Assembly: GCA_965211995.1 (NCBI GenBank)
Contig: OZ243040.1
Coordinates: 1,555,363 to 1,619,362, forward strand
Reading direction: 5' to 3'
DNA from: Candidatus Oxydemutatoraceae bacterium
GTDB lineage: Bacteria > Pseudomonadota > Gammaproteobacteria > Poriferisulfidales > Oxydemutatoraceae
Length of the DNA stretch: 64,000 bases
Position 1 is the first letter of the stretch. Every line of letters begins with the position of its first letter. The notes under the pieces were generated by a model that made no database searches, was not told where the DNA came from, and saw only the letters and a program-made list of their open reading frames with translations. Positions 13,530 to 59,581 of this stretch are shown here, piece after piece. Position numbers and translations under genes: made by a program.

Positions 13530-13556
13530 TTTCCAAGTCCCTTGGTTAAGTTGAAT

Positions 13557-14426: not shown

Positions 14427-14632
14427 TTGCCGAGCGTTTTACACTTTATGCGCGTCCCTTTAGAGGGCTGGCATCTTTCAGATGGTTTTAGACGCTCACC
14501 TCTTCTACATCTGCTGCAAACTTTAGAGGGGGGCATTTTTTAGCCCGTTTTAGAATTTCTAAAACTTCTTCATAAACCTTCTTACGTTCAGGTTGTCGTT
14601 CAAGTTGTGAGGAGGATATCTTTATACGCCGT

Positions 14633-25587: not shown

Positions 25588-26253
25588 CTACCGTCGGCGT
25601 ATGTAATAACCGCTATCACTGTCAAGGGGAATTTCATCCCCTTCCTGAGCATGATCGCTTTCCAAGTGCTTCCATGAAAGCCACAAGACCATAACAGTGG
25701 CCACTAGTATAGATCCTACTATCCACCACCTGTATGGGACACATCCAGGGTCAAAACACATCAGGCTGAAAACAAGCAACACCGACCAAATAACCGTGCT
25801 CAAAAGACTTACAGCAATACCAATTTTAGAAACAGAAAAGGGGGACGCTGAAAGAAGCGAATTTGATCCAGTATATTCGTGGATAGATGTCTTATATAAT
25901 TTGCCTGTAATTTCATCCTCTAAAAAGTCAATATTTTTCTCCCAAATCTCTTGCCAATACCGACTACCCTTATTAGCCAACCACCACCAAAAAGAAAGGA
26001 TCAGTCCAACAGAACTCAGAGCAACAGAGGCTACCCATAGGACCAAACCGTTTTGAGACTTTACCAAACCAGCATAAGCGACAAACGCAAGTGCAATAAA
26101 AACCCAAAAATAAGCCGACCTTTTCCAAAAAAGATCTATTTCAAACCGACGTATTTCATGTGCGTATTTAAGTGCTCTTGCCTGCATACGCTCTCTCTGG
26201 GGGTTATCCCCAAAAGCCTCGCGCAGGTACTTTTGTCTGGCAGTTTCATTCAT
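25588..26253 (-). CDS. hypothetical 4-TM membrane protein, coupled to the res gene
   Basis: 221 aa, two hydrophobic helix pairs; starts 15 bp after the res stop; low GC. Confidence 0.5.
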   Translation of the reverse strand: MNETARQKYLREAFGDNPQRERMQARALKYAHEIRRFEIDLFWKRSAYFWVFIALAFVAYAGLVKSQNGLVLWVASVALSSVGLILSFWWWLANKGSRYWQEIWEKNIDFLEDEITGKLYKTSIHEYTGSNSLLSASPFSVSKIGIAVSLLSTVIWSVLLVFSLMCFDPGCVPYRWWIVGSILVATVMVLWLSWKHLESDHAQEGDEIPLDSDSGYYIRRR

Positions 26254-26268
26254 GCGGTAAAGACCCGG

Positions 26269-28950
26269 TTATTTATAATTGGTGAAACCCTCCACCAACT
26301 CTTTAAATGATTGTGGATTATATTCGTAGAACCCTTTCTCATCCACATAAACAAAGTCATAAATAACTTCTGATTGTATTCGATTAATATCTTCACACCA
26401 TTGTTTCAACCTTTTCATTTTCAAATCCACGTCCATATCTTTTAGCCCTTTAGTTTCCACAATAAAAATCTCAGAGGGGGATTTTTTGACCAGGAAATCA
26501 GGGTAATAATTAGAAATATTCCCGTCGGCGTTCACGTAATCTATCTTGAAATGGGAAGTGGCATTTTTTGCATAGGAAATAATGTCCGCACATTCCTCTA
26601 AAAACCCCGCAAACTTCAACTCAAGGTGGCTATCCCCCACAATCTTATTGAAAACACTCTTTTTAGGAATCAAATACTCTTGCTGCTTAACGACACAGGG
26701 GCGTGTTTTACGCAACTTGATCGCATCCCGTATTTCCGCATTGCCCCGGTCTTGCACCGTTAATTCGTTGATCCTTTTTTTGAAAGTATCAATTAATGTC
26801 TTGCAGGCAACCAGTTCCGACAGATTACGCAAAGTGTTGGGATTCTCCAATTCGATTTCCTTGCCAAATAAATGAAACCTTATAAACTCTTTTACTTTTC
26901 CATAAAGCACATCATACCCGCTGAATAAACGCAGATCTTTCATGATTGTCTTTGTAAAATACCCAATGACACTGCTGTAATTAGGGACACCGGAAATATC
27001 CAGTTTCGTGATATGTGTAATTTCTCCTGTTGTGATGTCTTTAAAAACAATTTCCCGCTGCTGTTCCTTTACAAACTGACGATAAGGCGCTTTCTCACAA
27101 CCAAAAGTGCCAACATCAAGATCGTCAAGGTTCTTATACTCACGATAGATTCTAGCGGTCAGAACCGGGATCTCGATATCCAGTGCATCCATATCTTTGT
27201 TTTTGTTGTCATGGTCAATTTCAATAATGAGCGGCGTTTTTGCACTAGTGCCCTCTCCCATCGCTGCGCGTTCCAGTTCAACCCCCTCAGTTTGAATGGA
27301 CTCCACAAATTCCATAAAGGCGTCAGTCCCAACCACACTGACTTGTTCTTCCGCATCCTCATCCGGATACATCCTGCGCAAACCGCGGCCTAAGGTTTGT
27401 TCCGGCAAAATGTTGCTCTGAGCGGTATATGGCCTCAAGCCCACAATCGTCGTCACATTACGTACATCCCAACCTTCCTTAAGCACCAGCACTGAAACAA
27501 TAGCCTTATACGAGTTATCTGCACTATCAATAGCATTCGCTTGCTTTCTCAACTTTTCCAATTCGTCTTTGTTTCTACTGCTGTCTGCCTCAGAAATCTC
27601 CCCATTCTTTTTAGTGTGAATAACCAGTACGGCATCTTTCAGATCAGGGTAGGTGCTTTCTAGATATTCGGCAACGCTATCGCAATTCTTTGTGTCATCC
27701 GTCATTACAAACAAAATCGCTTTTTTATCTAGTTTCTTGTGTTCCTCATAAGTTTTTCTCCATTCAACCACCCCCAGATGCAAATAATCAGAATACTTTT
27801 CAGTATATTTAATGCTTTGCTTCTCTCTGAGTTTAGCCCTGCTGGCAGAATCGGGAAGCACGGGATGTTTAACCACATTTTGAGAAATTGCTTCGACCAA
27901 CGGGTAGTCTGAAACAGTTTGCACGAAAATCGCCCCATTATTGTGCTTGGGTGTCGCGGTGGTATCTACCTGCAAAGATAACTCGCTGCCTTTCTGCAGC
28001 AAATGATTGTGAATGTCTTCAATGCACTTAAACCAAGCGAGACTACTATCGTGTATGTGATGCGCCTCATCGTTCAAAACCACTAACTCATCTATGTCAC
28101 GAACGATAACCCCTAAATCTATCTTGGAATCCGTAGTCGCACCTGTCGGTTTTTTGCCTAGAAAATAGCCCCTCGTATCGTCATCGTCAGCCGATGGAAG
28201 AGCATCGTCGCCGGCATATATGCGATGGATATTAGTCAGAAAGACATTGCCAGCAGGACGAGTAACACGCACTTCATCCTGTATGTGCACGGTCAAGTTA
28301 AAGTCATCGTTCCAATTCCGGCCGCCCACTCCATCATCAGGCAATATCGGATCTTCCCTGAAAATTTTCGAGTCTACAAAATCCTTACGCAGTCTGTCCA
28401 AAACTATAATGTTGGGAGCAATCACAAGAAAGTTGCGGGCAAGTTCTGATTCATCCTCGTAAATCTTATGGAAATAACTCCAAGCCAAGACCAGGCTCAT
28501 AACTTTAGTTTTTCCCGTTCCTGTCGCCATCTTGACGACAAAGCGTTTCCAACTCTCATCGAACATGTTTGCGGAAACAGCGCCGGATTTGTCAAATCGA
28601 AGCATGTCGTACTTGTCTTTTATACGTGCCACGTCGTATAAATAAATGATCGTCTCAATGGCTTCCCTCTGGGCAAAGTAATACTGGAACTCCGTTGCCG
28701 TTCCATCATTTGTATTAGAAATTAAGTGCGGGGTGTTGAACCACCAATTCAAAAGGCTGCGGCTTGTCTCAGTAGCCCCCTTGTACCCGCTATCACGCCA
28801 CTTCTTAACTTGTCTCCTTAACTCCGGGACCAGCGGTGGCAACAACTTCTCAAAACTCGTCTCGCGTAACGTTTCATCTGCCGGGAGCCAGCGAACATCA
28901 GGCTCCAAAATTGCATGAGGAGAATCTGGAAAATCAGGATGGAGTGCCAT
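26269..28950 (-). CDS. res: type III restriction enzyme Res subunit (SF2 helicase plus C-terminal PD-(D/E)xK nuclease)
   Basis: Walker A 'ATGTGKT', 'LNDEAHH' DEAH box, C-terminal 'YYPDFLV...IVETKG' nuclease motif; 893 aa; low GC. Confidence 0.85.
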   Translation of the reverse strand: MALHPDFPDSPHAILEPDVRWLPADETLRETSFEKLLPPLVPELRRQVKKWRDSGYKGATETSRSLLNWWFNTPHLISNTNDGTATEFQYYFAQREAIETIIYLYDVARIKDKYDMLRFDKSGAVSANMFDESWKRFVVKMATGTGKTKVMSLVLAWSYFHKIYEDESELARNFLVIAPNIIVLDRLRKDFVDSKIFREDPILPDDGVGGRNWNDDFNLTVHIQDEVRVTRPAGNVFLTNIHRIYAGDDALPSADDDDTRGYFLGKKPTGATTDSKIDLGVIVRDIDELVVLNDEAHHIHDSSLAWFKCIEDIHNHLLQKGSELSLQVDTTATPKHNNGAIFVQTVSDYPLVEAISQNVVKHPVLPDSASRAKLREKQSIKYTEKYSDYLHLGVVEWRKTYEEHKKLDKKAILFVMTDDTKNCDSVAEYLESTYPDLKDAVLVIHTKKNGEISEADSSRNKDELEKLRKQANAIDSADNSYKAIVSVLVLKEGWDVRNVTTIVGLRPYTAQSNILPEQTLGRGLRRMYPDEDAEEQVSVVGTDAFMEFVESIQTEGVELERAAMGEGTSAKTPLIIEIDHDNKNKDMDALDIEIPVLTARIYREYKNLDDLDVGTFGCEKAPYRQFVKEQQREIVFKDITTGEITHITKLDISGVPNYSSVIGYFTKTIMKDLRLFSGYDVLYGKVKEFIRFHLFGKEIELENPNTLRNLSELVACKTLIDTFKKRINELTVQDRGNAEIRDAIKLRKTRPCVVKQQEYLIPKKSVFNKIVGDSHLELKFAGFLEECADIISYAKNATSHFKIDYVNADGNISNYYPDFLVKKSPSEIFIVETKGLKDMDVDLKMKRLKQWCEDINRIQSEVIYDFVYVDEKGFYEYNPQSFKELVEGFTNYK

Positions 28951-28965
28951 AATTATTGGGGGAAT

Positions 28966-30240
28966 TTATTCTTTCGGGTTTGGGTCTTTTTTGTCCGCAG
29001 TACTATTTTCTGTGACGTTATCTATAGCGCTTTTCATAAAATCCACTTCATCATGCCTTTTTCTCAGTGGATCTTGAAGGATTTGATTCAAAATCCCGCG
29101 CACGTAGTAACTTTTGTCTTTTGATTCTATCTTTTCCATAAATGCCATTAATGATTTTGCCAGCACTGCTTTATAAGAGTAGTCTTCAGCCAAGTTTTTA
29201 TTTTTGACATATCTGCCCGCACAAAACCAAGCACCCGCTATTAACAAAGGAATTAGAGTCAGCCTAAGTGCGGCAGTTACTACATCTGCCCCATCATCCG
29301 TTAAAGATCCCAAGATATAGAAACCCAACCCAACTGAAAATAATGTAAAAAGTAAAGCACCCGATAACCAACCCACAAAATTATTCCACTTTCTAGCTTG
29401 ACTGTACTTTTCTTGGTAGGCCGCGCTGATTCCTGCAGCGGTCGTGTACTCAAGAGCTATCTTAGATTGCTTTATCAGTTGACTAGCCTCTTCAAGAAGT
29501 TCTTCCTGTTGTTGCTTATACTTTTCTGCCTCTTGCTCCTGAGATTCTAGTTGAGCCCGCTTTTCTTCAATTTGTTGGGAAAATTCTTCAATCACTTTGA
29601 AATGAGTTTTTGCAGAAGATAATAATTGACTTATGTCTTTATTACTATCAGAAGACCTCTCGTGAATACCCGTTAATTCATCAGATTTCTGATTGAGACC
29701 ATTAAGTTTTTCTGAAAAAGAGGCAAAATTCTCCTCCGCTTGTTGTATTTTACTCTGTGCCTGTTCGGCATTTTCTTGGATGCTTTTGACTTTCTTAATA
29801 TCTTCTTCAAGTGCAGAACTCTTTGAGTGTAATTCATTGAGACGTTCTTCAATAGCCTTTTGAGATTCTGATGATCCTCTGATTCTATAACTTCGAATGA
29901 TAATTTTTAATTCATCCAACTGGTTGGCAACATTTGGGTAGTTTTTTTGATTTAACAAATTATTTATCCTATTTAAGCAAATCTGTATGTTAAGTCTTTC
30001 CTGATAGACAGACAGTTGTATAAACTTGTTATGCGCTTTCGTGATACCTCTCAAGTCCGTAATAATAGCTTGCAGCCCCGCTTTAAGGGACTGTGGGGTG
30101 TATTCCCCTTCCTGCCCATAAACACTTTTCCCATGCTCTCTCGGAGCAAAAGTTGAGAGATGTTTTTCCAACATGTCTAATTGACCACGTACGTTTTTTA
30201 TTGATTCTGTTTCCATGATTTCACACTGTAATTTGCACAA
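28966..30240 (-). CDS. coiled-coil protein with two C-terminal TM helices, inserted between mod and res
   Basis: ~290 aa of heptad-rich Q/E/K/L sequence, then TM helices 'WLSGALLFTLFSVGLGFYILGSL' and 'LTLIPLLIAGAWFCAG'; its start overlaps the mod stop. Confidence 0.55.
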   Translation of the reverse strand: MCKLQCEIMETESIKNVRGQLDMLEKHLSTFAPREHGKSVYGQEGEYTPQSLKAGLQAIITDLRGITKAHNKFIQLSVYQERLNIQICLNRINNLLNQKNYPNVANQLDELKIIIRSYRIRGSSESQKAIEERLNELHSKSSALEEDIKKVKSIQENAEQAQSKIQQAEENFASFSEKLNGLNQKSDELTGIHERSSDSNKDISQLLSSAKTHFKVIEEFSQQIEEKRAQLESQEQEAEKYKQQQEELLEEASQLIKQSKIALEYTTAAGISAAYQEKYSQARKWNNFVGWLSGALLFTLFSVGLGFYILGSLTDDGADVVTAALRLTLIPLLIAGAWFCAGRYVKNKNLAEDYSYKAVLAKSLMAFMEKIESKDKSYYVRGILNQILQDPLRKRHDEVDFMKSAIDNVTENSTADKKDPNPKE

Positions 30241-32458
30241 TTTTCATAGTGTCATTGCCAAATATATCCACTACTTTAACGGCTATCTTCCGTCGCCCGG
30301 GTTTACATTCCTTAAATATACTAGTGAGTTCTAATGAGCGATCTTTCTTTGTCCGAAATGATTGCCACTCGTTTTCAAAGACATAGTCGCCGGTCCAACG
30401 CTCTTCCCACTTGTCAGTATCTTCATCTTTAACCCTAATAATCTCACGCTTACTCTCAAAATCAAAATCCACCGCCCAATAATCAATCCAATCCGCCCAT
30501 TCTTTGGTCAGCACTTCACGCTTGACGATGCCGTCTTTCGCCTTACTCACTTTAATAATCTGCCCTTGCTCCACCACGATTTTATTTTTCCCTTTCTTCA
30601 AACTAACTTCAACATTTGCAATAGAGTCCTGCGAATAGAAAACAGAAAAATCAGTCAACTCTATAGCGACACTTTTATCCTTAATGTGAGGTTTAATTTC
30701 AATATACGACACGTCGTGGAACACCACCTGATTTTTCTCCACCGCCCGCTTGTCAAAGACTTCGGCGGGGATGTATTTCATTTCCAGGTTGATGCCTTTG
30801 CCTTTTGCTTCGTCCATGATTTGCGGGAATAGGCCCATTTCAAACTCAAAGGCGAGGATGTCGGCGCGGGTGATGTGATTTTTGCGGCACTCCAGGATAA
30901 TTTCTTCCACGAACAGGCGCGTAACCGGCAGGTTGATGGGGCCGATGGCGACCATGCGTCCGGCTTTTTTGCCGTGGAACACGCCGGACTGTTCCACCGG
31001 TTGCGCGGCGTAGGCTTTGAGGATCAGGTCCTGGTATTCCTTTGATTTGGCGGCGATCTGCGCTTGCTGCTGTTCAGGTCGCAGGCCGGGATTGACGCCG
31101 ATGTAGTGCTGGCGTTCGTATTTTCCGAGGTTGAGGATTTCAAAGGCGCGGTAATTTTTGCTTTCCTTTTTGAGTGCGCGCTGTACGCCGATCATGCGCT
31201 TGCGGGTGGTGTGGATGGCGAACTTGCCGAGGTCGGAGGCGATCCATTTGCGGCTGAGTTTTTCGGCGACGGCGGCGGTGGTGCCGGAACCACAGAAGAA
31301 GTCGGCGACGAGGTCACCTTCGTTAGAGGAGGCTTTGATGATGCGTTCTAAAAGAGCTTCGGGTTTTTGGGTTGGGTATTTCAGGTATTCTCCGCCTTGT
31401 GTGGCTCTAATGTCCATCCAAACATCACGACAGCGAACTCCCTTACCCATATAAAGTTTTCGCCCTGGAACTTTCCCCTCCTCAATCAGCAACTCGCCAT
31501 TTTCAATCCACAGCAACGCAGTTTTTTTGGGCATCCCATAACCCCTTGATGGTACTTTCTCGCCATATCCTAAATCATAAACATAGCCGCCTCCGCCTGG
31601 GTTATCTACGGGGCCTACTCGATAGCGGCCTCTTTCATCGGAGTAGCGATAAAGACTTTCGCTGGCTTTGCTGTATTCCTGAAAAATGTCATTCCAGATC
31701 ACTTTTCTTTTTCCCTTACGATAAAAAAACAAAGTTTCGTGGGACTTTATAAATTTTTTGTTTTTTGCCGAACTATCCCCGATAGCTCCCTGCCAGATAG
31801 ATTCGTTCACGAAATTCTCTTTCCCAAACACCTCATCCAAAGCCAACCGCATAAAACCATTCACCCGCCAATCACAATGCACATAAATACTCCCATCCTC
31901 CGCCAGTAAATCCCGCATCAACACCAGCCGCTCATAAATCATCGCAATAAACGAATCCGCGCCCTTGCCCCAGGTGTCGCGGTAGGCCAGTTCCTCCAGC
32001 ACGTTCGGCTTTTTGGTGAAGGTGTCGCCGCCGATTTCAATATCCATGGAAAAATCCGCGCCCACGTCAAACGGCGGATCAATGTAAATCAGTTTCAACC
32101 CGCCCTGCGCTTCAATCTCCTCGCGCAACGGCCCGTTCTTGAGGCCGGACAGGATCAACTTGTTGTCGCCCCAGATCAGTTTGTTGCTCCAGCCCTTGAG
32201 TTGCCGCCCACGCGCATCGGTGGTGAACAGATCCGCCTGTAGCGATGTATCCTCCGACTTCTCCGCGCGCGGTTCGTCCACCTGCTCAATCACCTGAAAC
32301 GGCAGCACCACGTTGCACACCTCGCTGGTCTTGCCGTTCCACACCAGTTCCACTTCCCGCTTGTCGTCAAACAACAGGAAGCGGTACTTGTCGGGCAGCG
32401 GCTTGCCGGACTCAATGAGTTTGACGACGTCGCGCTTTTCGTTGTCGGAGAGGTTCAT
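30221..32458 (-). CDS. mod: type III restriction-modification Mod subunit (N6-adenine DNA methyltransferase, beta class)
   Basis: 'IYIDPPFDVG' (motif IV) lies N-terminal to 'FFCGSGTTAAVAEKL' (motif I); start 'MNLSDNEKRD'; long low-GC C-terminal extension. Confidence 0.85.
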   Translation of the reverse strand: MNLSDNEKRDVVKLIESGKPLPDKYRFLLFDDKREVELVWNGKTSEVCNVVLPFQVIEQVDEPRAEKSEDTSLQADLFTTDARGRQLKGWSNKLIWGDNKLILSGLKNGPLREEIEAQGGLKLIYIDPPFDVGADFSMDIEIGGDTFTKKPNVLEELAYRDTWGKGADSFIAMIYERLVLMRDLLAEDGSIYVHCDWRVNGFMRLALDEVFGKENFVNESIWQGAIGDSSAKNKKFIKSHETLFFYRKGKRKVIWNDIFQEYSKASESLYRYSDERGRYRVGPVDNPGGGGYVYDLGYGEKVPSRGYGMPKKTALLWIENGELLIEEGKVPGRKLYMGKGVRCRDVWMDIRATQGGEYLKYPTQKPEALLERIIKASSNEGDLVADFFCGSGTTAAVAEKLSRKWIASDLGKFAIHTTRKRMIGVQRALKKESKNYRAFEILNLGKYERQHYIGVNPGLRPEQQQAQIAAKSKEYQDLILKAYAAQPVEQSGVFHGKKAGRMVAIGPINLPVTRLFVEEIILECRKNHITRADILAFEFEMGLFPQIMDEAKGKGINLEMKYIPAEVFDKRAVEKNQVVFHDVSYIEIKPHIKDKSVAIELTDFSVFYSQDSIANVEVSLKKGKNKIVVEQGQIIKVSKAKDGIVKREVLTKEWADWIDYWAVDFDFESKREIIRVKDEDTDKWEERWTGDYVFENEWQSFRTKKDRSLELTSIFKECKPGRRKIAVKVVDIFGNDTMKIVQITV

Positions 32459-33861
32459 GGGGAGAGGTCCGGTGCGGCGTGGCGGCCAGCAAGATAACAA
32501 TACACGCTGGCGGGAAAGTAGGCCATCTTTTGATTTTCCATGTCAACGTGCCCAAACTTGGTTCGTGTTGTGAAATAACAATCTTCCATCCCGGGATGTT
32601 TTTTGAAAAACGTCTGCAAAGACCCTCGCTTTTGCCGTTGTTCAATACCTCCGTCAGACCATTTAACTTCCAAACACCAGAAAGGATGCCCACGTTCGTC
32701 AAGGGCCACGATATCCACTTCGCCGCCTTGCCAGCGTGCGTAGTGAAATTCGTATTGGAAATGAAACAACTGAGCAAATACTGCGGTCTCTACCAATGCC
32801 CCGCTTGGTCCTTCATCCTCCGGCGGGCCAAAAAGGGCGTGGTGGATTGAGGGATTGGTGAGATACACCTTGAAGAAATTGGCGCGCTTGAACCGCCTGG
32901 CATTTTGGTCTATGCGGCGAACAGTTTTGATAAGAAATGCGGCCTCCAGATATTCCAGATAACGTTTGAGCGTGGGCTTGGACACACCGGATCTCTGCGA
33001 GAGTCCGTCCAGTGATACTTCCTGTGCGGTATTCCAGGCGAGAGCCACGAACAGAGAATTGAGTTCCTGGATGTCTTGTATGCCGTAGAGACTCGGCAGG
33101 TCGCGCAGCAACACCTTGTCAATGATGTCGCTACGGACATAACGACTCATGTCCTGCTGTATGGTTTCGGAAAAAATGATTTCCGGGTAGCCGCCGATTT
33201 TGATGTAACGGATGAAGTGATCGTTGAGTTCTTTGATATTAGCATCATTCCAATTCTCTGTCTCATCTTCCCGTGCAAACGGCACGTTGATTTCCTGTAA
33301 ATCCAGATACTCGTAGAAGGTCAGCGGCGGCAGGAAAAAATCGGTGAAGCGCCCGGCGCCGGATTCAATGCTCTTGAGTCGCAACGCCGCCGCCGCCGAA
33401 CCGGACACCACGCATTTTATGTTTGGATGCGAATCCACAAACACTTTCAGGTGGCGTTCCCAATCCCGCAGGTACTGGATTTCGTCGAGGAAGAGAAAAG
33501 CGGGCGTTGCTTTTTTTAATCCGCCGGCCTCGTGAACCCGGGCGGCAAGTTCTTCGATGGACAGATTGGAATAGAGGGGCTGGTCCAGCGACAGGTAGGC
33601 CACGGCCCGGGCGGGGGTGCCTTTGTCCAGAAGTTTCTGGATGATGTGTTGTAGCAACACAGTTTTGCCGACGCGGCGCGGCCCCATCAGCACCACGGCA
33701 CGGCGCACGTCTTCGGTTTCCACCAGTTCGGCAAAGGCCCGGATGCAGGCGCGGGGGCGCATTTTCCGATGCACTTCATCGGTCTGGTGCGATGCCGTGC
33801 TCCACCAGGGATTTTCAACGCGCATGCGCTCCAGGAGCTGCGCTTCGGGGATGGTGTCCAT
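32455..33861 (-). CDS. AAA-family ATPase with C-terminal DUF4143 (PD-(D/E)xK-like) domain
   Basis: Walker A 'GPRRVGKT', Walker B 'LFLDEIQ', C-terminal 'EVDIVALDERG...CLEVKW'; 4-bp overlap with the mod start. Confidence 0.8.
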   Translation of the reverse strand: MDTIPEAQLLERMRVENPWWSTASHQTDEVHRKMRPRACIRAFAELVETEDVRRAVVLMGPRRVGKTVLLQHIIQKLLDKGTPARAVAYLSLDQPLYSNLSIEELAARVHEAGGLKKATPAFLFLDEIQYLRDWERHLKVFVDSHPNIKCVVSGSAAAALRLKSIESGAGRFTDFFLPPLTFYEYLDLQEINVPFAREDETENWNDANIKELNDHFIRYIKIGGYPEIIFSETIQQDMSRYVRSDIIDKVLLRDLPSLYGIQDIQELNSLFVALAWNTAQEVSLDGLSQRSGVSKPTLKRYLEYLEAAFLIKTVRRIDQNARRFKRANFFKVYLTNPSIHHALFGPPEDEGPSGALVETAVFAQLFHFQYEFHYARWQGGEVDIVALDERGHPFWCLEVKWSDGGIEQRQKRGSLQTFFKKHPGMEDCYFTTRTKFGHVDMENQKMAYFPASVYCYLAGRHAAPDLSP

Positions 33862-34304
33862 TATGACTGTATTGTAGCGACGGCGAGGCCGAAATTCAAT
33901 ATAAGAGAAGTTGACTTATCTTATAGGGGTTTTCTGTCGTTTTAATTTATTAATCATAGATTTATATCCGTACGAAAATTGGGATGGCAGGAATCTGGAA
34001 ACATCCGGCGTTTTATCTCATGGATGCGGCTTTTGGGGTGCTTTGTCTCATATTTTCAGTTTTATGAGACAATTTAGGGGGTTTGTGTTATCTATGAGGC
34101 ATTAATCTAGGATTACGATCAACTCCGAAAAACAGCACAATGCCGTCCTGCCACCCCTTCCCGGCATTATTTTCTGAATAATTCCCCCTTTTCAAGGAGA
34201 TTCAGCAGTCGCGCCGCACTGGGACGCGGGACAACAGCCCTGTCCCGAAAATCAACGCCGGTGAACCACGGTTCGGAAAAAATGAAATTGGTAATCTGTG
34301 TGCT

Positions 34305-34531
34305 CGCATTCGTAGGCGATGTGTTGTCTGATTTTGTCAAAGATCTGGTTCATGGATTGGCGGCTAATGCCGACGATTTAAGCGACTTTGCAGGCTTCGA
34401 TATCGAGGCAAAACAGGCGCAGGATTTGGCGGAATTTCGCCCCGGAAATTCGTGAACGGATGATATACTTTTTTTCATTTATATAACAATGTGTTATGCG
34501 CATTTTAGTATACCTTAAGTTGTCTTGAACC
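34305..34531 (-). mobile_element. IS1595-family remnant (left end only: terminal inverted repeat plus ~60 codons of the transposase N-terminus)
   Basis: ~85% identical to 55540-55763, including the inverted repeat 'ttaagttgtcttgaacc' and the 'MKNKY...' start region. Confidence 0.6.
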
Positions 34532-34578
34532 TATTTAAATGTAGCACTAGTTGCTTAGGTGATGTATCATGACGATAC

Positions 34579-34860
34579 ATGGATGAGCAGGGGGGAATTC
34601 GATGTTTGCCTATCGAAAAGGCCGAAGAAATAATCCGTGCTTATGCGGCGTACAAAAATCGAGATTCTCTTGAATTGAGTTATTCAGAACACGCGTTGGA
34701 GCGCGCAAAAGAAAGAGGTATTTCTAATTCTGATGTCTTCTATATCCTTGCTCATGGCTTCATAAATGAGGAACCACAGGAATCAAGCAGACTAGGATAT
34801 TGCAAGTACAAATATGCAGTAAATCGCCTAACTCAGGCAACCGAGAAATATGTGCGGTAG
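34579..34860 (+). CDS. DUF4258-like small toxin candidate
   Basis: 'SEHALERAKERGISNSDVFYILAHG' resembles the DUF4258 core; 93 aa; followed by an HTH gene. Confidence 0.45.
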   Translation: MDEQGGIRCLPIEKAEEIIRAYAAYKNRDSLELSYSEHALERAKERGISNSDVFYILAHGFINEEPQESSRLGYCKYKYAVNRLTQATEKYVR

Positions 34861-34923
34861 TGATTCCTGATCCCCGTAAGCCAGCCATCAAAATCGTTAC
34901 ACTCATGTGGAAGGATTTATAAA

Positions 34924-35379
34924 ATGACTCCCGAAATAGTACGCCATCACTACACCGAGTGTGGGTTGCCTAATGTATGGATTCAAGGTCTGCGCATGGA
35001 AGACGACGCCGGGGAAAAAGTGATCAGAATCCCGAATATAGGAAGCCTGCATAAGTTGATCTCAAAGACGATCGTAACCTCAAAAGGCACGCTGACCGGG
35101 CCGGAGTTGCGCTACCTGCGCACCGAGATGGGATTGACTCAAACGCAACTGGGCGAGTTGGTTCATCGCGAGCGCCTGACCGTCTCGCGCTGGGAGCGCG
35201 GGGAAACCACTTTGGAGGGCGCCACCGAGGCGTATATCCGCATACTGGCGTCCAGCAAACTGGGGCTGGAACAGGTCGATCCGGCAGAACTCAGCTGCTG
35301 GTGCAGGTTGACGCCCGACAGTAAAAAACCAATCCACATAGACGCAACGGATCCTGAAAACTACCGCCTCGCCGCTTGA
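34924..35379 (+). CDS. XRE-family HTH protein (antitoxin candidate)
   Basis: 'LTGPELRYLRTEMGLTQTQLGELVHRERLTVSRWERGE' helix-turn-helix. Confidence 0.6.
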   Translation: MTPEIVRHHYTECGLPNVWIQGLRMEDDAGEKVIRIPNIGSLHKLISKTIVTSKGTLTGPELRYLRTEMGLTQTQLGELVHRERLTVSRWERGETTLEGATEAYIRILASSKLGLEQVDPAELSCWCRLTPDSKKPIHIDATDPENYRLAA

Positions 35380-53080: not shown

Positions 53081-54112
53081 ACTCTCAACGTCTCCTGGGT
53101 GAGCGGCCGCTGCGCCGCAAAAGTGCTGCTGCTATAACGGCCCATTTTCCTACAAACCGCAGCGCAGGTCATCCCCGCGTAATCAAAGAAGCGCCGTCTC
53201 CGCAAAAAGTGCGATATCCCGCATGACGCTGCGGCGGCTTTCAGTCCGAAACTGCCTCAATTCAAAAGCATGAGGCACTTCTCCGAATCGGAGGAGACAC
53301 CTTGCAAACCCGCCGCATTCGGCCACCGCCTCAGGGGATTTTACCGCGTTGGCACCTTCCGGCTCGAAGTGCGGCAAAAATAAGGGAGACAAGTGCCCTG
53401 TTTGTCCCCCCGCCTGTTACCAACCGGAGGACTGAATCGGCGCCTGCAGGCACCAATCCTTTCCGCACCGTACCACGGTTCAAGTGTTGCTCGACGCCGG
53501 GTATTCCCAGGCCTGCATCGCCAATCCATCAACTGCCGCCGCTCCCCCCCGCTCCGGGAGATCAAGCGCAACCGCACCGCCGCCGCCATAAGTTCGGAAA
53601 CGGGCCGAAGCCGGAACATCGCGCCGGTCGCGTGGCGCGCAAAGAGCGGTTATGCGGACGGCGCCCTCCACGGTCGCCCCGCGATCGTGGGCCAACGGTC
53701 GCCTCTCGGCGACCGGGAAATAAAAGGATGCGATTTTGTGGGAGAACCTCCGGCCCTGTGGCTGGATTGACCGTCCAAAACATACAAAATCACGCCCTGT
53801 GCAAGTTGCCGCGGTGAACCACTGCTGTTGTGCATCAAATGGGTGAAATGGCGGGACGGGCAGCGCGAATCAGGCATACCCTAACTGTTAGAAGTTAACT
53901 GGTTGTTAGTAATGATTCCCATGCACCATGGTATCTGGAAGATTTAATTTACTAACAGCACAAACATCGAAAAACCCAACAACCTCATTTGGCTTAATTG
54001 CTACTCCACCAAAGCCATCATATCCCCCGCCACCACACCACCACCCGCTCTCCGACCACCGCGGGGACTAGAGGTGGTTTAGGCCCTGCTGAAGTCGGGC
54101 AACCCCTGACGG

Positions 54113-54937
54113 TCATTGCTTTTCCATGACCGCAACCGAGTAAAAATTAAGCACCGCCATAGGCTCCTCCGCTCCGGGGGAGTATTCTTCACGAAGATTT
54201 TTCATCAGCCGGTCTTCGACCACTTTCAGCGGGGTTTTTTGTTCCAGCACCTTCAGGTCGTCAAAGCCGGTGACCCAGGTGGCGGACATTTTATCGAAGA
54301 ATTCGGCGGCTTTTGTTATTGAATCAAAGCCGCTGGTGCGCATGACCATGCACTTGTCCAGGTAGTCAAAGGTGACCGCGAAGCGGGCGAGGTTGTCGCA
54401 GAAATCATTCAGCAGGCGAACGACTGTTTCTTCGGGGAGATACATCGTGTTGCCCTCCCAGGTAATCAGCGTCGGCGCGTCCGGGTCAAGGCCCTGCGCG
54501 GCCAGTTTGGCGAACAAATCTTCGTCCGCGTAGTTGCACGGCACGAAGTTTGCGCGGTAAGGGATGTTGTTTTTCTCTATGACCTGCTGTTTGAAGGCCA
54601 GCACCGCGCTTTGATCGACGTCAAAGAAAACCACGTCGTCGTCTTGATAACCACCGGCGCGCATGTCAAAGCCGCTGCCCAGCATGATTACCTGGCGAAC
54701 GCCGCCGGTGACCGCATCGGCGGTTTTGTCGCCGAAGAATTTTATCCGGTAGCGAATCATTTCACGCCCTTCCGGCAGCACCTTTTCGAAGTCGAGCGCT
54801 TTTTGTATCACCTGTTCATTGACAAAAAACTCCGAATACCCGTCCTCAAAGAGCGGTGCATCCGCGTCCTTTTCCAGCGCACGGTAGGCGGCGATGATGA
54901 ATGCGGTCGCACCGATTTCGTTGATAATGTCTTTCAT
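54113..54937 (-). CDS. class I SAM-dependent methyltransferase (leucine carboxyl/TcmP-like O-methyltransferase family)
   Basis: 'VIMLGSGFDMRA' and 'WEGNTMYL' are LCM-family motifs; intermediate GC; next to the IS element. Confidence 0.65.
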   Translation of the reverse strand: MKDIINEIGATAFIIAAYRALEKDADAPLFEDGYSEFFVNEQVIQKALDFEKVLPEGREMIRYRIKFFGDKTADAVTGGVRQVIMLGSGFDMRAGGYQDDDVVFFDVDQSAVLAFKQQVIEKNNIPYRANFVPCNYADEDLFAKLAAQGLDPDAPTLITWEGNTMYLPEETVVRLLNDFCDNLARFAVTFDYLDKCMVMRTSGFDSITKAAEFFDKMSATWVTGFDDLKVLEQKTPLKVVEDRLMKNLREEYSPGAEEPMAVLNFYSVAVMEKQ

Positions 54938-55029
54938 GTGGTTACCTCTTGTTTATTTGGCAACGTTGCCGCTCAAATACTCCAAAGTCTCTTTCACTCT
55001 GTTCACCGCTATGCCGAACAATTTGATCT

Positions 55030-55763
55030 GGGTTCAAGATACTTTAAGCGGTCTATTTCGTATAGATTTCAGCAGGTATTGATACATATTTTCGTGGCGC
55101 ATATTGAAGCGAAACTCACACTCTTTCAAGTGGCAATAAAACCTCTGTATGTGAATACCCCGAAAGCGGGCAAGGCGCACCTTGCAAAGCCCCCGGAAGT
55201 TCCCGATGCCGTTGATATGGCGGCTACCTTGCGCGAACTCGTTGTGGCTGTGTCTGATGCGGTAATGTTGCTTATAGCCGAGGTCGGCGAGACCGTCTCA
55301 GGTTCTAAATCCATCGCTATAAACCGCCATCTGCTTACTGGCCTTGCCCTTGTTAATCGGCAGGATTTCAGCCATAGAGCAGTTTTTAACCACTTGGCCT
55401 TGCCGCCACGCTTGAACATGCCGAACACCGGCGTTTTTCCGGCAGCACCGCGCCCGCGCCTGCCGCGTACCCGGCGGGGCCCGAAGTATCTTTCATCCAA
55501 CTCAACCGCCCCCTCGCCAAAGGGGCTGGCGCGCTCGCATTCATGGGCGATGTGTTGTCTGATATGGTGGAACAAGCGGTTTGCCTCAGGGTGGTTGATG
55601 CCTGCGATTTGGGCGACTTTGCAGGCCTCGATATCCAGGCAAAACAGGCGCAAAGTCTGCCGGAATTTAGCCGCGGAAATTCGTGAACGAAGGATATACT
55701 TGTTTTTCATTTATGGGACAATAAGTTACATTCATTTTAGTATATCTTAAAGTGTCTTGAACC
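55030..55763 (-). mobile_element. IS1595-family element, internally deleted (~734 bp), with 17-bp terminal inverted repeats
   Basis: Inverted repeats 'ggttcaagatactttaa' at 55030 and 'ttaaagtgtcttgaacc' at 55747; encodes only the transposase N-terminus. Confidence 0.7.
55126..55710 (-). pseudogene. IS1595-family transposase, truncated or frameshifted
   Basis: 'MKNKYILRSRISAAKFRQTLRLFCLDIEACKVAQIAGINHPEANRLFHHIRQHIAHEC' matches the IS1595 (ISXO2-like) transposase N-terminus; the remainder of the ORF is out of frame. Confidence 0.65.
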
Positions 55764-55832
55764 TAAATTAATTCATAGGCAGAAATAAAATTCACTAGTA
55801 TCATTGCAATTATTATCAAACGAGTAACCAAA

Positions 55833-57842
55833 ATGCCAGCACTAGGATTGGGCCGCGAGAGACCCGCGGACTACATAAATATCAGCAAGACAATCGCGGA
55901 TACATATCCGTCAGGGTTGGCGCATGGACTCCAAAAAGATGCTATTCAGAACTCTGTGGATGCAAGGAGTAGTAAATCGTTGCCGATAAAAGTTGAATTT
56001 AATGTTGTGCGGAACGCTAATGGCGTGTTTTTGACAATAACTGATTCAAACACGACCGGGCTCACTGGTGATGTCATACACGATATTGAAGATTATCGGC
56101 ATTTACAACGAGATGATCATTGGGCGCGGTTTGAGTCTTTTGCTTTCACGAAAGTAGATGCTGATGCCCTTGGGGCTAGAGGGCAGGGTAAATTCATCTT
56201 TCTTTATGCATCCCAAAATCACAAAATGTTTTACGACACCCTAAGGAAAGACAGTATCTATAGACTCGGCGCAACACAAGCTACCGATATAGGATGTCCA
56301 ATTTTCCCCGGCAGTGAAGAAAAACCGTGGGAAAGTCATATTGCCCGGGAAAGATTAAGCGAACACTGCGGCCTGGTGCCTCTACGAGAGATTGGGACAA
56401 GAGTTATCATTTGTGCTCCTAAGCAAGAGGTTTTGGACGCAATTGACAGTGGGGAAATGGAGAGAGCCATCCAGGAAACATGGTTTCGATTAATACAAAA
56501 GAAACAATTGGAGGTAACTTTACATACAAAGGGGCAGATCAAAACAATAGAGTTACCAAATATCTATACGCTTCCCCAAAATGACTCAAGCACTCATAAA
56601 GTTTGGATTTACGGTCAAGATTTTAACGAAAGGGAAATCAAACTCCTTTCCGGCGAAAATTACAAAATCAAGAACTTTCACGTCGTATACCTAAAAAAAG
56701 AAACGGTGCCGGAAGATTTGCAGGGAATAACTTTGGTGCAAAACGGCATGAAAATCACGTCTCTGCCTATGGCAATGGCCCCGACAGATATCAAGGAGAA
56801 AATTACCGGCTACATAGAATTTGGCCGTGACCTTGACAGAGAATTGCGAAAGGGAAAAAACCAACTCCCGAATCACTATGATTTGAAGTGGAGATCAGCT
56901 CTTCCTCGTAGCATTAAAGCATTTATAACAAACCAACTAGATGCTTTTGGAACATCTAAGCTTGGTTTAGGTGAAGATCCTCGTCAGCGAAAAAATCGAC
57001 GGAGAAACGATGCCGAAGATTGGGCAATGCGACAATTACAACAATACGCAAGGGACTTGAATTTACTTGGCCCCCACAAACCCAGACCGGGGTCGGACCC
57101 GCCGCGTCCCCCTATTCCACCGCCACATAAAGATAGAGGTTTGTCTTTCAAGGATTTTTTGATTCCTAACGAGGGGTTCCGCGTTAATTGGGGGCAACAA
57201 GTTACGTTTTCCCTATGGGGCTTCAACAAAACCTCAGAGGCTGTAGAATATAAAATATCGTTGAGGGTGCTCCATGCCGACTCGGAAATTGTCAAATTGC
57301 TTGATAGTGAATCCCTTACACTTGATGCCAATTCAAGAAAACAAATCAGCGATTCTTCTTTCACCCTTGCCATTGAAAAGCCTCAATATGAAAACGTCGG
57401 CGAGTATAGAGTTAAGGCTACCTTGATCAATGCCGAGACGGGTGAAGAGGTGGATACGCTCACGCGAAAATTCTGGGTGGAAAGCAATCCGCCCATGCGT
57501 CAGCCTTTTGAGTTGAAAGCATCCCTATTTCCACCGGATTTAACGCTTGCTTGGTCAGCAGATGTTAATAATATGATGTTACTCTACAATACCAATCATC
57601 CGGAATATCGTTCTGCGGAAAAAAACGAGGACACACAAACGGATTATTTGCTAAAAATTTGCTTGGAAGGCGCCCTACATTTTGTGTTGGCGAAAACGTT
57701 CGAGGATGCCCCGGATTATGCTCCGTTGGACACAAACACCATTATGCAGAGTGACAAAGACATAATTCCGGAAAAGACTTACGCTGAGGTTATGGCATAC
57801 ATATCCAAAATACGCTGGAAAATTTACGAAGATGGGAGCTAA
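55833..57842 (+). CDS. GHKL-superfamily ATPase (MutL/MORC/Hsp90-like Bergerat fold) with a ~480-aa C-terminal region of unknown function
   Basis: N-box 'LQKDAIQNSVDA', G1 'ITDSNTTGLTGD', G2 'LGARGQGKFIFL'; low GC; 669 aa. Confidence 0.7.
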   Translation: MPALGLGRERPADYINISKTIADTYPSGLAHGLQKDAIQNSVDARSSKSLPIKVEFNVVRNANGVFLTITDSNTTGLTGDVIHDIEDYRHLQRDDHWARFESFAFTKVDADALGARGQGKFIFLYASQNHKMFYDTLRKDSIYRLGATQATDIGCPIFPGSEEKPWESHIARERLSEHCGLVPLREIGTRVIICAPKQEVLDAIDSGEMERAIQETWFRLIQKKQLEVTLHTKGQIKTIELPNIYTLPQNDSSTHKVWIYGQDFNEREIKLLSGENYKIKNFHVVYLKKETVPEDLQGITLVQNGMKITSLPMAMAPTDIKEKITGYIEFGRDLDRELRKGKNQLPNHYDLKWRSALPRSIKAFITNQLDAFGTSKLGLGEDPRQRKNRRRNDAEDWAMRQLQQYARDLNLLGPHKPRPGSDPPRPPIPPPHKDRGLSFKDFLIPNEGFRVNWGQQVTFSLWGFNKTSEAVEYKISLRVLHADSEIVKLLDSESLTLDANSRKQISDSSFTLAIEKPQYENVGEYRVKATLINAETGEEVDTLTRKFWVESNPPMRQPFELKASLFPPDLTLAWSADVNNMMLLYNTNHPEYRSAEKNEDTQTDYLLKICLEGALHFVLAKTFEDAPDYAPLDTNTIMQSDKDIIPEKTYAEVMAYISKIRWKIYEDGS

Positions 57843-57844
57843 TC

Positions 57845-58537
57845 ATGGCAGTTATACTCCGTGAACAAGTCGCATTGAGGGGCAAAACGAGTGAAATTAA
57901 AACATTTCACCCTTCCGGGGCATTGTCCAAAACTGACCGGGAGCGTGCAGAAAATCTGGACGCTTTTCTTGAAAGGGAAATACCCAAAGTAGTCGAACGC
58001 ATCATAAATCAGGTGACTTTGGCCAAAAACGACACGTCTTTGTTTAGATGGTATCTCTTCGGGAAGGAATTGAGAAAAATTACCGACAATGAACTGGTTT
58101 TATCACTGGATGTGAAAAGTGGAATTATCTGGGAAGCCGTATGGCAACATTTGCCGAATTCTTTTAAACCGCATGGTACCAGAACGGAAAAGAATCTGTT
58201 TTCAAAAAAACGGGTCCAAGGTAGGGACCATCTCTCTATATGCTACACGCTAGGCCAGTACGACGAGAAAGATATCCTGTGGATTCGTCGCTGGGATGAT
58301 TGGTGTCAAATCTATTACAGAACGGGAATTCTTGAAGACAAACGAGTATTTGAATCCCTTAGGGAAGAAATCCAGAAACTGAACGAGTATCCGAAAAAGG
58401 ATATTTTCAGGGGAATTGTTTCTAATATTTCCCAATGCTTTCCGCAGAAGGCTGGCAAAAAAGTACACACCAGCGTTCTGGCCAAGACAGTGATTAGAAA
58501 GCGCGTTCACGATAGTGCAATGCAAGCCTATAAATAA
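57845..58537 (+). CDS. hypothetical protein (230 aa), translationally coupled to the GHKL ATPase gene
   Basis: ATG 3 nt after the upstream stop; low GC; no recognisable motif. Confidence 0.5.
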   Translation: MAVILREQVALRGKTSEIKTFHPSGALSKTDRERAENLDAFLEREIPKVVERIINQVTLAKNDTSLFRWYLFGKELRKITDNELVLSLDVKSGIIWEAVWQHLPNSFKPHGTRTEKNLFSKKRVQGRDHLSICYTLGQYDEKDILWIRRWDDWCQIYYRTGILEDKRVFESLREEIQKLNEYPKKDIFRGIVSNISQCFPQKAGKKVHTSVLAKTVIRKRVHDSAMQAYK

Positions 58538-58578
58538 ATCCTGCAAATTCGAGATATTAATATTGGCCTGCCAGGCTC

Positions 58579-58782
58579 GGTTCAAGATACTTTAAGCAGT
58601 CTATTTCGTATAGATTTCAGCAGGTATTGATACATATTTTCGTGACGCATATTGAAGCAAAACTCACATTCTTTCAAGTGGCAATAAAACCTCTGTATGT
58701 GAATACCCCGAAAGCGGGCAAGGCGCACCTTGCAAAGCCCCCGGAAGTTCCCGAGGCCGTTGATATGGCGGCTGCCTTGGAT
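58579..58782 (-). mobile_element. IS1595-family remnant (right end only)
   Basis: ~93% identical to 55030-55235, including the inverted repeat 'ggttcaagatactttaa'. Confidence 0.65.
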
Positions 58783-58825: not shown

Positions 58826-59581
58826 TTAATTGCTCAAGGTTCTGCCGCCGTCCACCGCGATGATCTGCCCGGTGATGTAGCCTGCGTCGCGCACCAGAAA
58901 CAACACCGCCGCCGCCGCGTCCTGCGGCGAGCCTTCGCGCTTGAGCGCGGTGCGGGCGATGATCTCCTTGTGCTGTTGCTCGTAATGCTCGTCCTGCGGC
59001 CACAGCAAGGCGCCGGGCGCGACCGCGTTGCAACGCACTTCGGGCGCGAGTTCGCGCGCGAGCGACTTCGTCAGCGCATGTACGCCGGCTTTGGCGATGG
59101 AATAGAGCATGTAGCCCTTGAGCGGGCGCCCGGCGTGAATATCGCCGACGTTGACGATGCAGCCCCGGCGCCGGCGCAACTCGGACGACAGGTGCGTGGA
59201 CAGGAACAAAGCACCCTTGAGATTGGCGCCGACGATTTCGTCCCACTGCGCCTCTTTCAATGCGCCGGGCGGCGTCGGATAAAACGTTGACGCGTTGTTC
59301 ACCAAAGCGTCGAGCCGCTCCCAGCGCGCCGCCGCCTGAGCCGCGAGCGACTCGACCTGCGCGAGTTGCAACAGGTCGGCCTGCACGACGCAGGCGGAGT
59401 CGGGACGCACGCGATTCAACGTCTGCGCAAGCCGTTCGGCCTCGTCGCGGGAGCGGCGACAATGCACCACGACGTTCATGCCCGCAGCGTGCAGGGTTGC
59501 GGCGATTGCCGCGCCGATGCGCCGGGCGGCGCCCGTCACCAGCGCGACCTTGCCCTCGAGATCGGTCGAAGTCTGCGTCAT
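58826..59581 (-). CDS. folM: SDR-family pteridine/dihydromonapterin reductase
   Basis: 'KVALVTGAARRIGAAIA' Rossmann motif, catalytic 'YSIAK', PTR1/FolM-like. Confidence 0.7.
   Translation of the reverse strand: MTQTSTDLEGKVALVTGAARRIGAAIAATLHAAGMNVVVHCRRSRDEAERLAQTLNRVRPDSACVVQADLLQLAQVESLAAQAAARWERLDALVNNASTFYPTPPGALKEAQWDEIVGANLKGALFLSTHLSSELRRRRGCIVNVGDIHAGRPLKGYMLYSIAKAGVHALTKSLARELAPEVRCNAVAPGALLWPQDEHYEQQHKEIIARTALKREGSPQDAAAAVLFLVRDAGYITGQIIAVDGGRTLSN

Follow-up and report, generated by a model that had tools for sequence, protein, structure and literature searches.

What does a pair of GC-poor genes, lodged between remnants of insertion sequences (ISs) in a gammaproteobacterial genome, do? 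We addressed this question for the cassette at positions 55833-58537 of a 64,000-nucleotide (nt) stretch of contig OZ243040.1 from a Candidatus Oxydemutatoraceae bacterium; this whole stretch is referred to below as the window. A first-pass annotation had read the two genes, here called A and B, as a MutL/MORC-like GHKL ATPase and an orphan partner that together form a candidate novel defence pair. Our comparison of both proteins with their relatives points to a two-gene defence module that originates from the restriction side of a MORC/paraMORC-type restriction-modification (R-M) system, a reading to which we assign a probability of roughly 60%. The two closely coupled open reading frames (ORFs) were confirmed in position and size:

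55833-57842, + strand: gene A, ORF of 669 amino acids (aa)
57845-58537, + strand: gene B, ORF of 230 aa

The TAA stop codon of A is separated by 2 nt from the ATG of B, and a Shine-Dalgarno-like GGGAG sequence is located 6 nt upstream of this ATG, inside the 3' end of A. Both the spacing and the GGGAG sequence are compatible with translational coupling of the two genes.

The origin of the module is indicated by the gene neighbourhoods of distant relatives of A. Neighbouring genes were clustered in 52 non-redundant loci, and counts with hidden Markov models (HMMs) were made in all 80 loci. A C5 cytosine DNA methylase (PF00145, E=2.6e-47) was present in 38 of the 52 loci, an iron-sulphur glycosylase of the HhH-GPD/EndoIII type in 28, Vsr in 7, and an upstream protein of ~345 aa, which we call N3, in 20; the corresponding HMM counts over the 80 loci were 51 for the methylase, 43 for the glycosylase, 8 for Vsr and 30 for N3. 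The association of a methylase with a T:G-mismatch repair enzyme is a hallmark of 5-methylcytosine R-M systems, for which Mig.MthI and Vsr are precedents. As the majority of the superfamily of A is found in clusters with a C5 methylase and Vsr or a T:G glycosylase, a context described already in 2008 from computational analysis (PMC2292703), the novelty claimed by the first-pass annotation is not supported in the form in which it was put. N3 had no Pfam match and showed weak similarity to ribbon-helix-helix (RHH) proteins in its N-terminal part and to winged-helix proteins in its C-terminal part; a PDB profile search with it gave nothing significant, only RHH-like and winged helix-turn-helix-like hints.

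The window copy of A belongs to a clade that differs from these relatives at two positions of the predicted S5 transducer. Position 344 is Gln in 77/77 sequences of the window clade, whereas it is Glu in 98 of the 99 other relatives, and position 303 is His or Gln in the window clade and Arg in 99/99 of the others. In contrast, H348 is retained in both groups (77/77 and 99/99). We refer to the relatives with E344 as E-type and to the window clade as Q-type. In a neighbour-joining tree all Q-type sequences group together, unmixed with E-type ones, and K307, like Q344 and H348, is invariant within this clade. A linked C5 methylase was found in 50 of 72 E344 loci versus 0 of 30 Q344 loci (Fisher p=5e-12), a comparison in which most Q-type loci had ~10 kb of flank on each side and many E-type contigs were short. 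The nearest E-type relatives have the same length and a single immunoglobulin (Ig)-like domain, and several of them are accompanied by the methylase and the glycosylase. No third recurrent gene was found in Q-type loci, only two of which have N3 upstream of A. Within the 64 kb of the window neither a C5 methylase (by HMM) nor Vsr was found; the sole DNA methylase found there, at 30221-32500, is encoded in a separate type III-like island 23 kb away. Since a linked methylase is missing and both R303 and E344 are replaced, the window clade probably represents a methylase-independent defence module.

Some E-type loci are also devoid of a methylase. In L093 (2891-10327), as in L097, L098, L087 and L060, N3, a DUF2130-like protein of ~390 aa, A and B are encoded in one same-strand operon, and L093 and L098 add after B a protein of 819 aa with no Pfam match and a non-significant MID51-like PDB match. 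Such arrangements suggest that the accessory modules around the A+B core are interchangeable.

B accompanies A with high constancy. In the first set of loci with a complete A it was located directly downstream of A in 29/29 cases (the window and duplicate loci counted), and this set includes members from Verrucomicrobia and Bathyarchaeota in which A is only ~30% identical. The distant set, from metagenomes, consisted of 71 loci in which A is complete. The first B profile was positive in 62 of them, and a wider B profile rescued two more (E=4e-48 and 2.5e-41); in the remaining 7 no B-like ORF was detectable, and in most of these the contig ends directly after A. Moreover, the identities of A and B to the window proteins co-vary (Spearman 0.72, n=68). 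Judged from these comparisons, A and B are an obligate unit, and B is a constant, co-diverging and predicted co-transcribed partner of A.

In an exhaustive profile search the superfamily of A was represented by at least 512 clusters (50% identity) at an E-value cut-off of 0.001, of which 272 passed a cut-off of 1e-30. The pair is carried by at least nine lineages of bacteria and archaea, and its spread is patchy: it was found in Gammaproteobacteria, Spirochaetia, Planctomycetota, Chloroflexi, Actinobacteria, Elusimicrobia, Omnitrophota, Verrucomicrobia and Bathyarchaeota, in all cases in metagenome-assembled genomes (MAGs). The GC content of the pair was below that of its flanks in 22 of 23 loci, and both ORFs were unbroken in every locus with complete sequence. 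In A, ~139 alignment columns are at least 90% conserved, and the window copy differs at 4 of these, D331G among them; in B it differs at 7 of 60 highly conserved columns. The Q-type clade is, by its pattern of conservation, under purifying selection. A fusion of A with B was looked for in the longer relatives and none was found. In one protein of 343 aa (P0243), residues ~6-189 of an A homologue are followed by residues ~74-220 from a B homologue; it probably arose by deletion or misassembly and is not a natural fusion. At one locus of a Spirochaetia MAG (L030, 9358-13436), A, B and an ORF of 107 aa are located amid glyoxalase/Ble-like fragments (132 and 80 aa upstream, 140 aa downstream), and it looks as if the cassette was inserted into a glyoxalase gene cluster.

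What kind of protein is A? Its AlphaFold2 model and alignments divide it into the following predicted parts:

55833-56498, + strand: residues 1-222, GHKL (Bergerat-fold) ATP-binding domain, with motifs conserved in 77 homologues
56499-56882, + strand: residues 223-350, S5-fold transducer with Q303, K307 and QxxxH (Q344, H348)
56883-57047, + strand: residues 351-405, hairpin of two long helices (AlphaFold2 helices 356-377 and 383-405)
57048-57134, + strand: residues 406-434, proline-rich flexible linker PRPGSDPPRPPIPPPHKDR, with a low predicted local distance difference test (pLDDT) score
57135-57482, + strand: residues 435-550, Ig-like beta-sandwich domain (sub-threshold match to Pfam Mannosidase_ig, E=0.0028)
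57483-57842, + strand: residues 551-669 and the stop codon, small beta-sheet and helical C-terminal domain (AlphaFold2 secondary structure)

The N-terminal half of A is predicted by the model to be a GHKL ATP-binding domain followed by an S5 transducer, and to be MORC-like. The values tabulated for the ATPase region of A were 22.5 for MORC3, 21.7 for SMCHD1, 19.7 for MORC2, 17.5 for MutL and ~16 for TRAP1 and Topo VI-B. The GHKL assignment was made because the predicted fold is accompanied by invariant motifs. The N-box, announced by the first-pass annotation as ExxxNxxDA, proved to be DxxxNxxDA: it reads D36-AIQ-N40-SV-D43-A and lies on helix 28-43, with Asp instead of the usual Glu. Position 36 is Asp in 76 of 77 homologues and Glu in one, and N40 is invariant. 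Motif II is the longer variant, D71...G76-L-x-G79, and motif III is G114-x-x-G117-x-G119-K120, both invariant or near-invariant in the 77 homologues; in motif IV (G188-T189-R190), G188 is conserved to the same degree and position 189 is Thr in 69/77 and Ser in 6/77. Motifs II-IV are kept also in 99 distant relatives.

The proposed MutL/MORC-like GHKL ATPase is thus supported by the predicted fold and motifs but not by sequence detection: no GHKL domain was detected in A by Pfam, NCBIfam or PDB sequence search. HATPase_c (Pfam) did not match A at E up to 1 or any of 10 distant relatives at E up to 0.01, and the profile search of PDB sequences with A returned no significant match. In a comparison with E. 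coli MutL, hhalign placed QKDAIQNSVDA on VKELVENSLDA and aligned motifs I and II, the alignment being non-significant (E=0.12), and it gave no match to MutL for the S5 region. A correspondence of H348 of A to K307 of MutL (NQLPNHYDLKW versus NVHPAKHEVRF) is therefore no more than a suggested resemblance.

The remaining ~480 aa, described earlier as devoid of any recognisable domain, contain by prediction the S5 transducer, the helical hairpin, the Ig-like beta-sandwich and the helical C-terminal domain. The proline-rich linker reported there is indeed present (residues ~406-434); its pLDDT is 56-61, falling below 50 at residues 416-419, and it is the sole low-confidence stretch of the model. 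Structural matches in the C-terminal part of A were to Ig-like domains only, and none was reported for residues 551-669; F559, N586, H589 and Y605 are conserved superfamily-wide. In relatives of 770-890 aa the Ig-like domain is seemingly duplicated, as there are two matched stretches and repeated consensus motifs.

B is no orphan: 39 homologues remain when sequences are clustered at 90%, and there are numerous others at greater distance. Its description as a conserved partner without a recognisable domain was borne out, as it matched no Pfam, NCBIfam, PADLOC or PHROG family, and PDB profile searches with B and with a wide B alignment gave nothing significant. The model of B shows an N-terminal beta-hairpin followed by a helical bundle (pLDDT 86.9), a predicted fold that appears to match no known one. 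The residues conserved among 69-93 diverse members are A35, D39, G73, R127, H129, C133, W150, W153, R167 and R189, and this Arg/Trp-rich set looks unlike the usual site of a metal-dependent nuclease.

We then compared the pair with known systems. Prokaryotic MORC/paraMORC GHKL ATPases have been predicted to act in R-M systems with cytosine methylases and Vsr, and ExxxH is given as the paraMORC2 motif (Iyer, Abhiman and Aravind 2008, PMC2292703). Because relatives of A carry E344xxxH348 and the methylase/Vsr neighbourhood of that description, the superfamily would be paraMORC2-like, judged from the published motif and neighbourhood. The likeness extends to GHKL and S5 domains with intact ATP motifs, to the sporadic occurrence in bacteria and archaea, and to the linkage of relatives to cytosine methylases and Vsr (PMC2292703). 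However, A+B differs from the MORC/paraMORC systems described there in having no linked superfamily II helicase, which was not a recurrent neighbour in either clade, and no linked nuclease of the restriction endonuclease fold. Further differences are the presence of B as a constant small partner, not mentioned in the text consulted, the Ig-like domain and helical C-terminus of A, the lack of a HATPase_c match and, in the window clade, QxxxH and the lack of a linked methylase or Vsr. Likewise, the MORC S5 motif GhXhhpXXRhl (PMC2292703) does not occur in A, which has G298-ITLVQNGM-K307-I, with no Arg at the ninth position and with Lys one residue off register; relatives of A have G-h-x-h-h-R-x-x-M-K at this place.

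From eukaryotic MORC3, MORC2 and SMCHD1, to which it is ~13% identical, A differs by the absence of CW, PHD and hinge domains and by its other partner and C-terminal domains. A validated mobile bacterial GHKL anti-phage protein that needs its ATPase residues is VcSduA (paraMORC3, Shedu type I-D; PMC12137116). However, VcSduA is one polypeptide that includes a fused DUF4263 PD-(D/E)xK nuclease (PMC12137116), whereas A+B consists of two genes in which no nuclease was found. In contrast to MutL, to which its similarity is non-significant, A has no C-terminal dimerisation/endonuclease domain and is not housekeeping; the reading of A as a housekeeping MutL paralogue, named by the first-pass annotation as the outcome contrary to defence, was rejected, as no MutL_C match was obtained and the context is variable, mobile and low in GC. 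Unlike classical R-M systems, the window pair has neither a linked cognate methyltransferase nor an identifiable nuclease.

As stated by the first-pass annotation, the pair could not be matched to a named system. The PADLOC check returned only a weak partial match of A to PDC-M33A (E=7.3e-7, 26 bits), the best match covering residues 24-60, that is 37 residues. Members of the family matched PDC-M33A weakly and collinearly (24-60 to 25-61, 64-165 to 90-183, and 305-383 to 329-405), which suggests that PDC-M33A is a distantly related GHKL+S5 protein of similar length. B and six other proteins of its family did not match any PADLOC model. The pair was therefore rejected as a PDC-M33 member, with no match at a usable threshold for A and none for B. 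PDCs are unvalidated defence candidates (PMC12988326); the literature yielded no paper on PDC-M33 and very few experiments with prokaryotic MORCs. Apart from these 37 residues, A had no significant match in PHROGs, Pfam, NCBIfam or PADLOC, Mannosidase_ig being sub-threshold.

The neighbourhoods of annotated A+B loci gave a mixed picture with regard to the expected association with defence genes: several pairs are located among R-M, toxin-antitoxin, Abi, SIR2 and GmrSD genes, but about a third of the annotated Q-type pairs are located among housekeeping genes. One pair adjoins an MvaI/BcnI R-M system and Fic; another (L003) adjoins IS66, a type I R-M system and a nucleotidyltransferase/substrate-binding pair. 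HicB, SIR2, a Schlafen/AlbA_2 protein, Fic/MazE, HEPN_AbiU2, ParE/Phd and, in L007, Mrr_N are encoded beside the pair in annotated loci, DndB is a neighbour in one locus, and a GmrSD-like gene is present in L011. In a 'Candidatus Porisulfidus' MAG (L005/L025, 13532-17525), a SIR2_2 protein of 423 aa and an overlapping protein of 910 aa are encoded beside A+B, and are possibly another two-gene defence system.

How could such a module work? By analogy with the ATPase modules of MORC, MutL and topoisomerases, A would dimerise via its N-terminal domains upon ATP binding and thereby clamp or loop DNA. B, made in fixed proportion from the coupled ORF, would bind A as a DNA-recognition, regulatory or effector subunit. 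The ancestral A+B complex may have been the restriction arm of an R-M-like system; in the relatives, the C5 methylase would mark self DNA and the T:G repair enzyme would offset the deamination of 5-methylcytosine. Q-type pairs would then act without self-methylation and might tell foreign DNA apart by other cues, such as its modification or structure. Another option is that the E-to-Q change removed an activity that endangered self DNA. The pair would have reached the genome as a low-GC cassette associated with IS1595 copies, which have since decayed.

Several points weigh against the defence reading. There is no experimental evidence for any family member in the literature. The association with defence genes comes from a listing of neighbours, and the third of annotated Q-type loci with housekeeping neighbours has no defence genes close by. 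Searches of sequenced plasmids, phages and IMG/VR contigs turned up neither A nor its E-type relatives. A, B and N3 showed no nuclease fold or family, and neither a nuclease nor another effector domain was recognised in A, in B or in any other conserved neighbour. As the Q-type is monophyletic, the correlation between the methylase and E344 reflects one evolutionary event and not independent replication. In the window copy itself, position 331 (56823-56825) is Gly, where the aligned homologues have Asp (71/77) or Glu (5/77); this residue sits in the conserved stretch IEF-D-xxLDRELRKG directly after the S5 domain, and the replacement could be neutral or weakening. Finally, the linkage to a methylase and T:G repair could instead point to a role in repair.

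In that case A would be a MutL-like accessory factor of very-short-patch repair, aiding Vsr or the T:G glycosylase at sites of 5-methylcytosine deamination. The conserved E-type neighbours, a C5 methylase plus Vsr or HhH-GPD glycosylase, would fit such a role, as would the cooperation of E. coli MutL with Vsr in very-short-patch repair (PMC2292703) and the failure to find a nuclease in A or B. However, the window clade is under strong purifying selection with no methylase, glycosylase or Vsr nearby, and the low GC content, IS flanks and patchy cross-domain spread of the pair resemble mobile defence rather than repair genes. In addition, a methylase with Vsr or a glycosylase is normal in 5-methylcytosine R-M systems, and A+B would be the only candidate restriction partner in these clusters; we consider a repair function quite improbable. 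A module that serves its carrier element and not the host, through addiction, maintenance or anti-defence, is to our mind similarly hard to favour: IS1595 copies flank the pair here and IS66 adjoins it in L003, toxin-antitoxin genes are frequent neighbours, and the coupled two-gene layout resembles toxin-antitoxin operons, but the pair was not found on plasmids or viral contigs, proteins of 669 and 230 aa with an ATPase are atypical of toxin-antitoxin pairs, and the relatives are located in R-M-like clusters. Least credible of all is an inactive relic, in which E344Q and R303Q would have disarmed an orphaned restriction half that is now drifting to loss. A change from Glu to Gln is a classic inactivating one and here coincides with the absence of a linked methylase, the window copy carries D331G, and the flanking IS copies are decayed. 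Nevertheless, the Q-type clade is sizeable and ancient (identities of 40-66% over many phyla), its A and B ORFs are intact wherever the sequence is complete, and ~140 columns of A conserved to at least 90%, with Q344 in 77/77, indicate selection for function.

Two more specific forms of the module were considered, both of them rather unlikely as they stand. One is a sub-case of defence, in which Q-type pairs attack DNA with foreign modification in the manner of type IV restriction. It would agree with the linkage of a methylase in 0/30 Q-type loci, most of them with ~10 kb flanks, with the descent of the pair from a methylation-aware system, with the adjacent type IV elements (the GmrSD-like gene of L011 and Mrr_N of L007), and with the response of eukaryotic MORCs to epigenetic marks (PMC2292703). 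However, neither a modified-base reader (SRA, YTH, EVE or similar) nor a nuclease was found, and the sequence does not separate this mode from other methylase-independent ones. The other, which we put forward as speculation, takes the Q-type pair for an immune or silencing module that works without a nuclease and independently of methylation: a MORC-like clamp of bacteria and archaea, with a partner of new fold, would disable foreign DNA through ATP-dependent entrapment or compaction instead of cutting it. Its origin would be an R-M system in which the ExxxH motif changed and the methylase was lost.

If the silencing module exists, prokaryotes would possess an equivalent of the MORC-mediated silencing of eukaryotes, and the module would illustrate how an R-M enzyme can become a chromatin-type repressor; a descent of the eukaryotic MORC chromatin regulators from prokaryotic MORC/paraMORC proteins was predicted in 2008 (PMC2292703). 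The occurrence of MORC/paraMORC ATPases in R-M and defence contexts is itself already known from comparative genomics since that year (PMC2292703). What is new is the specific A+B pairing, covered by no Pfam model and matched by PADLOC weakly and in part, together with a B protein without a known fold in a system where no nuclease can be recognised, and a clade that is monophyletic, has no linked methylase and carries QxxxH. The methylase-linked form with R303 and ExxxH and the methylase-free form with H/Q303 and QxxxH offer a natural comparison, and the roles of B and of ExxxH could reveal how GHKL clamps are tied to the distinction of self from non-self on DNA. The preferred reading, that of a defence module, could also give A+B a new entry in defence catalogues.

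The surroundings of the pair in the window agree with the description of a low-GC cassette bracketed by IS1595 elements, as the GC content of A+B is 43.7% versus 66% in the flanks and surrounding genome, with an element on the left and a 204-nt remnant on the right:

55031-55763, - strand: left IS1595-family element of 733 bp, internally deleted, with both 19-nt terminal inverted repeats
55126-55710, - strand: truncated IS1595 transposase ORF of 194 aa (NCBIfam and Pfam)
55776-55804, + strand: sigma-70-like promoter match, weak evidence (TAGGCA-17-TATCAT, 9/12 positions)
58576-58779, - strand: right IS1595 copy, 3' tail only, in the same orientation as the left one (204-nt direct repeat)

The flanking elements belong to the IS1595 family by their transposase and inverted repeats. 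NCBIfam transpos_IS1595 matched the transposase ORF with E=9.6e-16 over profile positions 1-107 of 215 only, its score remaining under the curated cut-off because the ORF is truncated, whereas Pfam DDE_Tnp_IS1595 was above its cut-off (E=1.9e-6). The inverted repeat GGTTCAAGAyACTTTAAGm had three matches where none was expected: at 55031-55049 and 55745-55763 in the left element, and at 58579-58597 in the right copy. The right stretch is 97% identical to 55028-55231 and stops ~46 nt short of the stop codon of a host short-chain dehydrogenase/reductase gene (58826-59581, - strand). As the left element and the right remnant have the same orientation, the cassette lies between two direct, defective IS copies. 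Sigma-70-like sites, such as the one upstream of A, were no commoner in this region than in shuffled sequence.

Directly left of the IS1595 element, at 54113-54937 on the minus strand, lies a gene of GC content 0.52-0.56 for an S-adenosylmethionine-dependent O-methyltransferase of the LCM/TIGR00027 type, which is not a DNA methylase and is absent from the neighbour families that recur at other A+B loci; it may be part of the same acquired island as A+B. Between this gene and a TolQ/ExbB-like one, the interval 53100-54100 has an intermediate GC content, contains neither a tRNA nor an Rfam match and no ORFs other than implausible ones that overlap each other, and may be a decayed remnant at the edge of the island.

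Two other low-GC islands of the window are defence loci, too. The one at 12567-15742 (GC 0.47-0.55), probably a separate defence locus, encodes an Mrr_cat endonuclease (12567-13529, - strand), Nmad3 (13557-14426, - strand) and a WYL/WCX regulator (14633-15742, + strand). The other, at 25588-35379 (GC 0.41-0.53), is large and encodes on its minus strand an 8xMP membrane protein, a ResIII helicase of 893 aa, a protein of 424 aa, an N6_N4 DNA methylase of 759 aa and an AAA_14/DUF4143 ATPase, the helicase and the methylase being a type III R-M-like Res/Mod set; an HTH_31 protein is encoded at 34924-35379.

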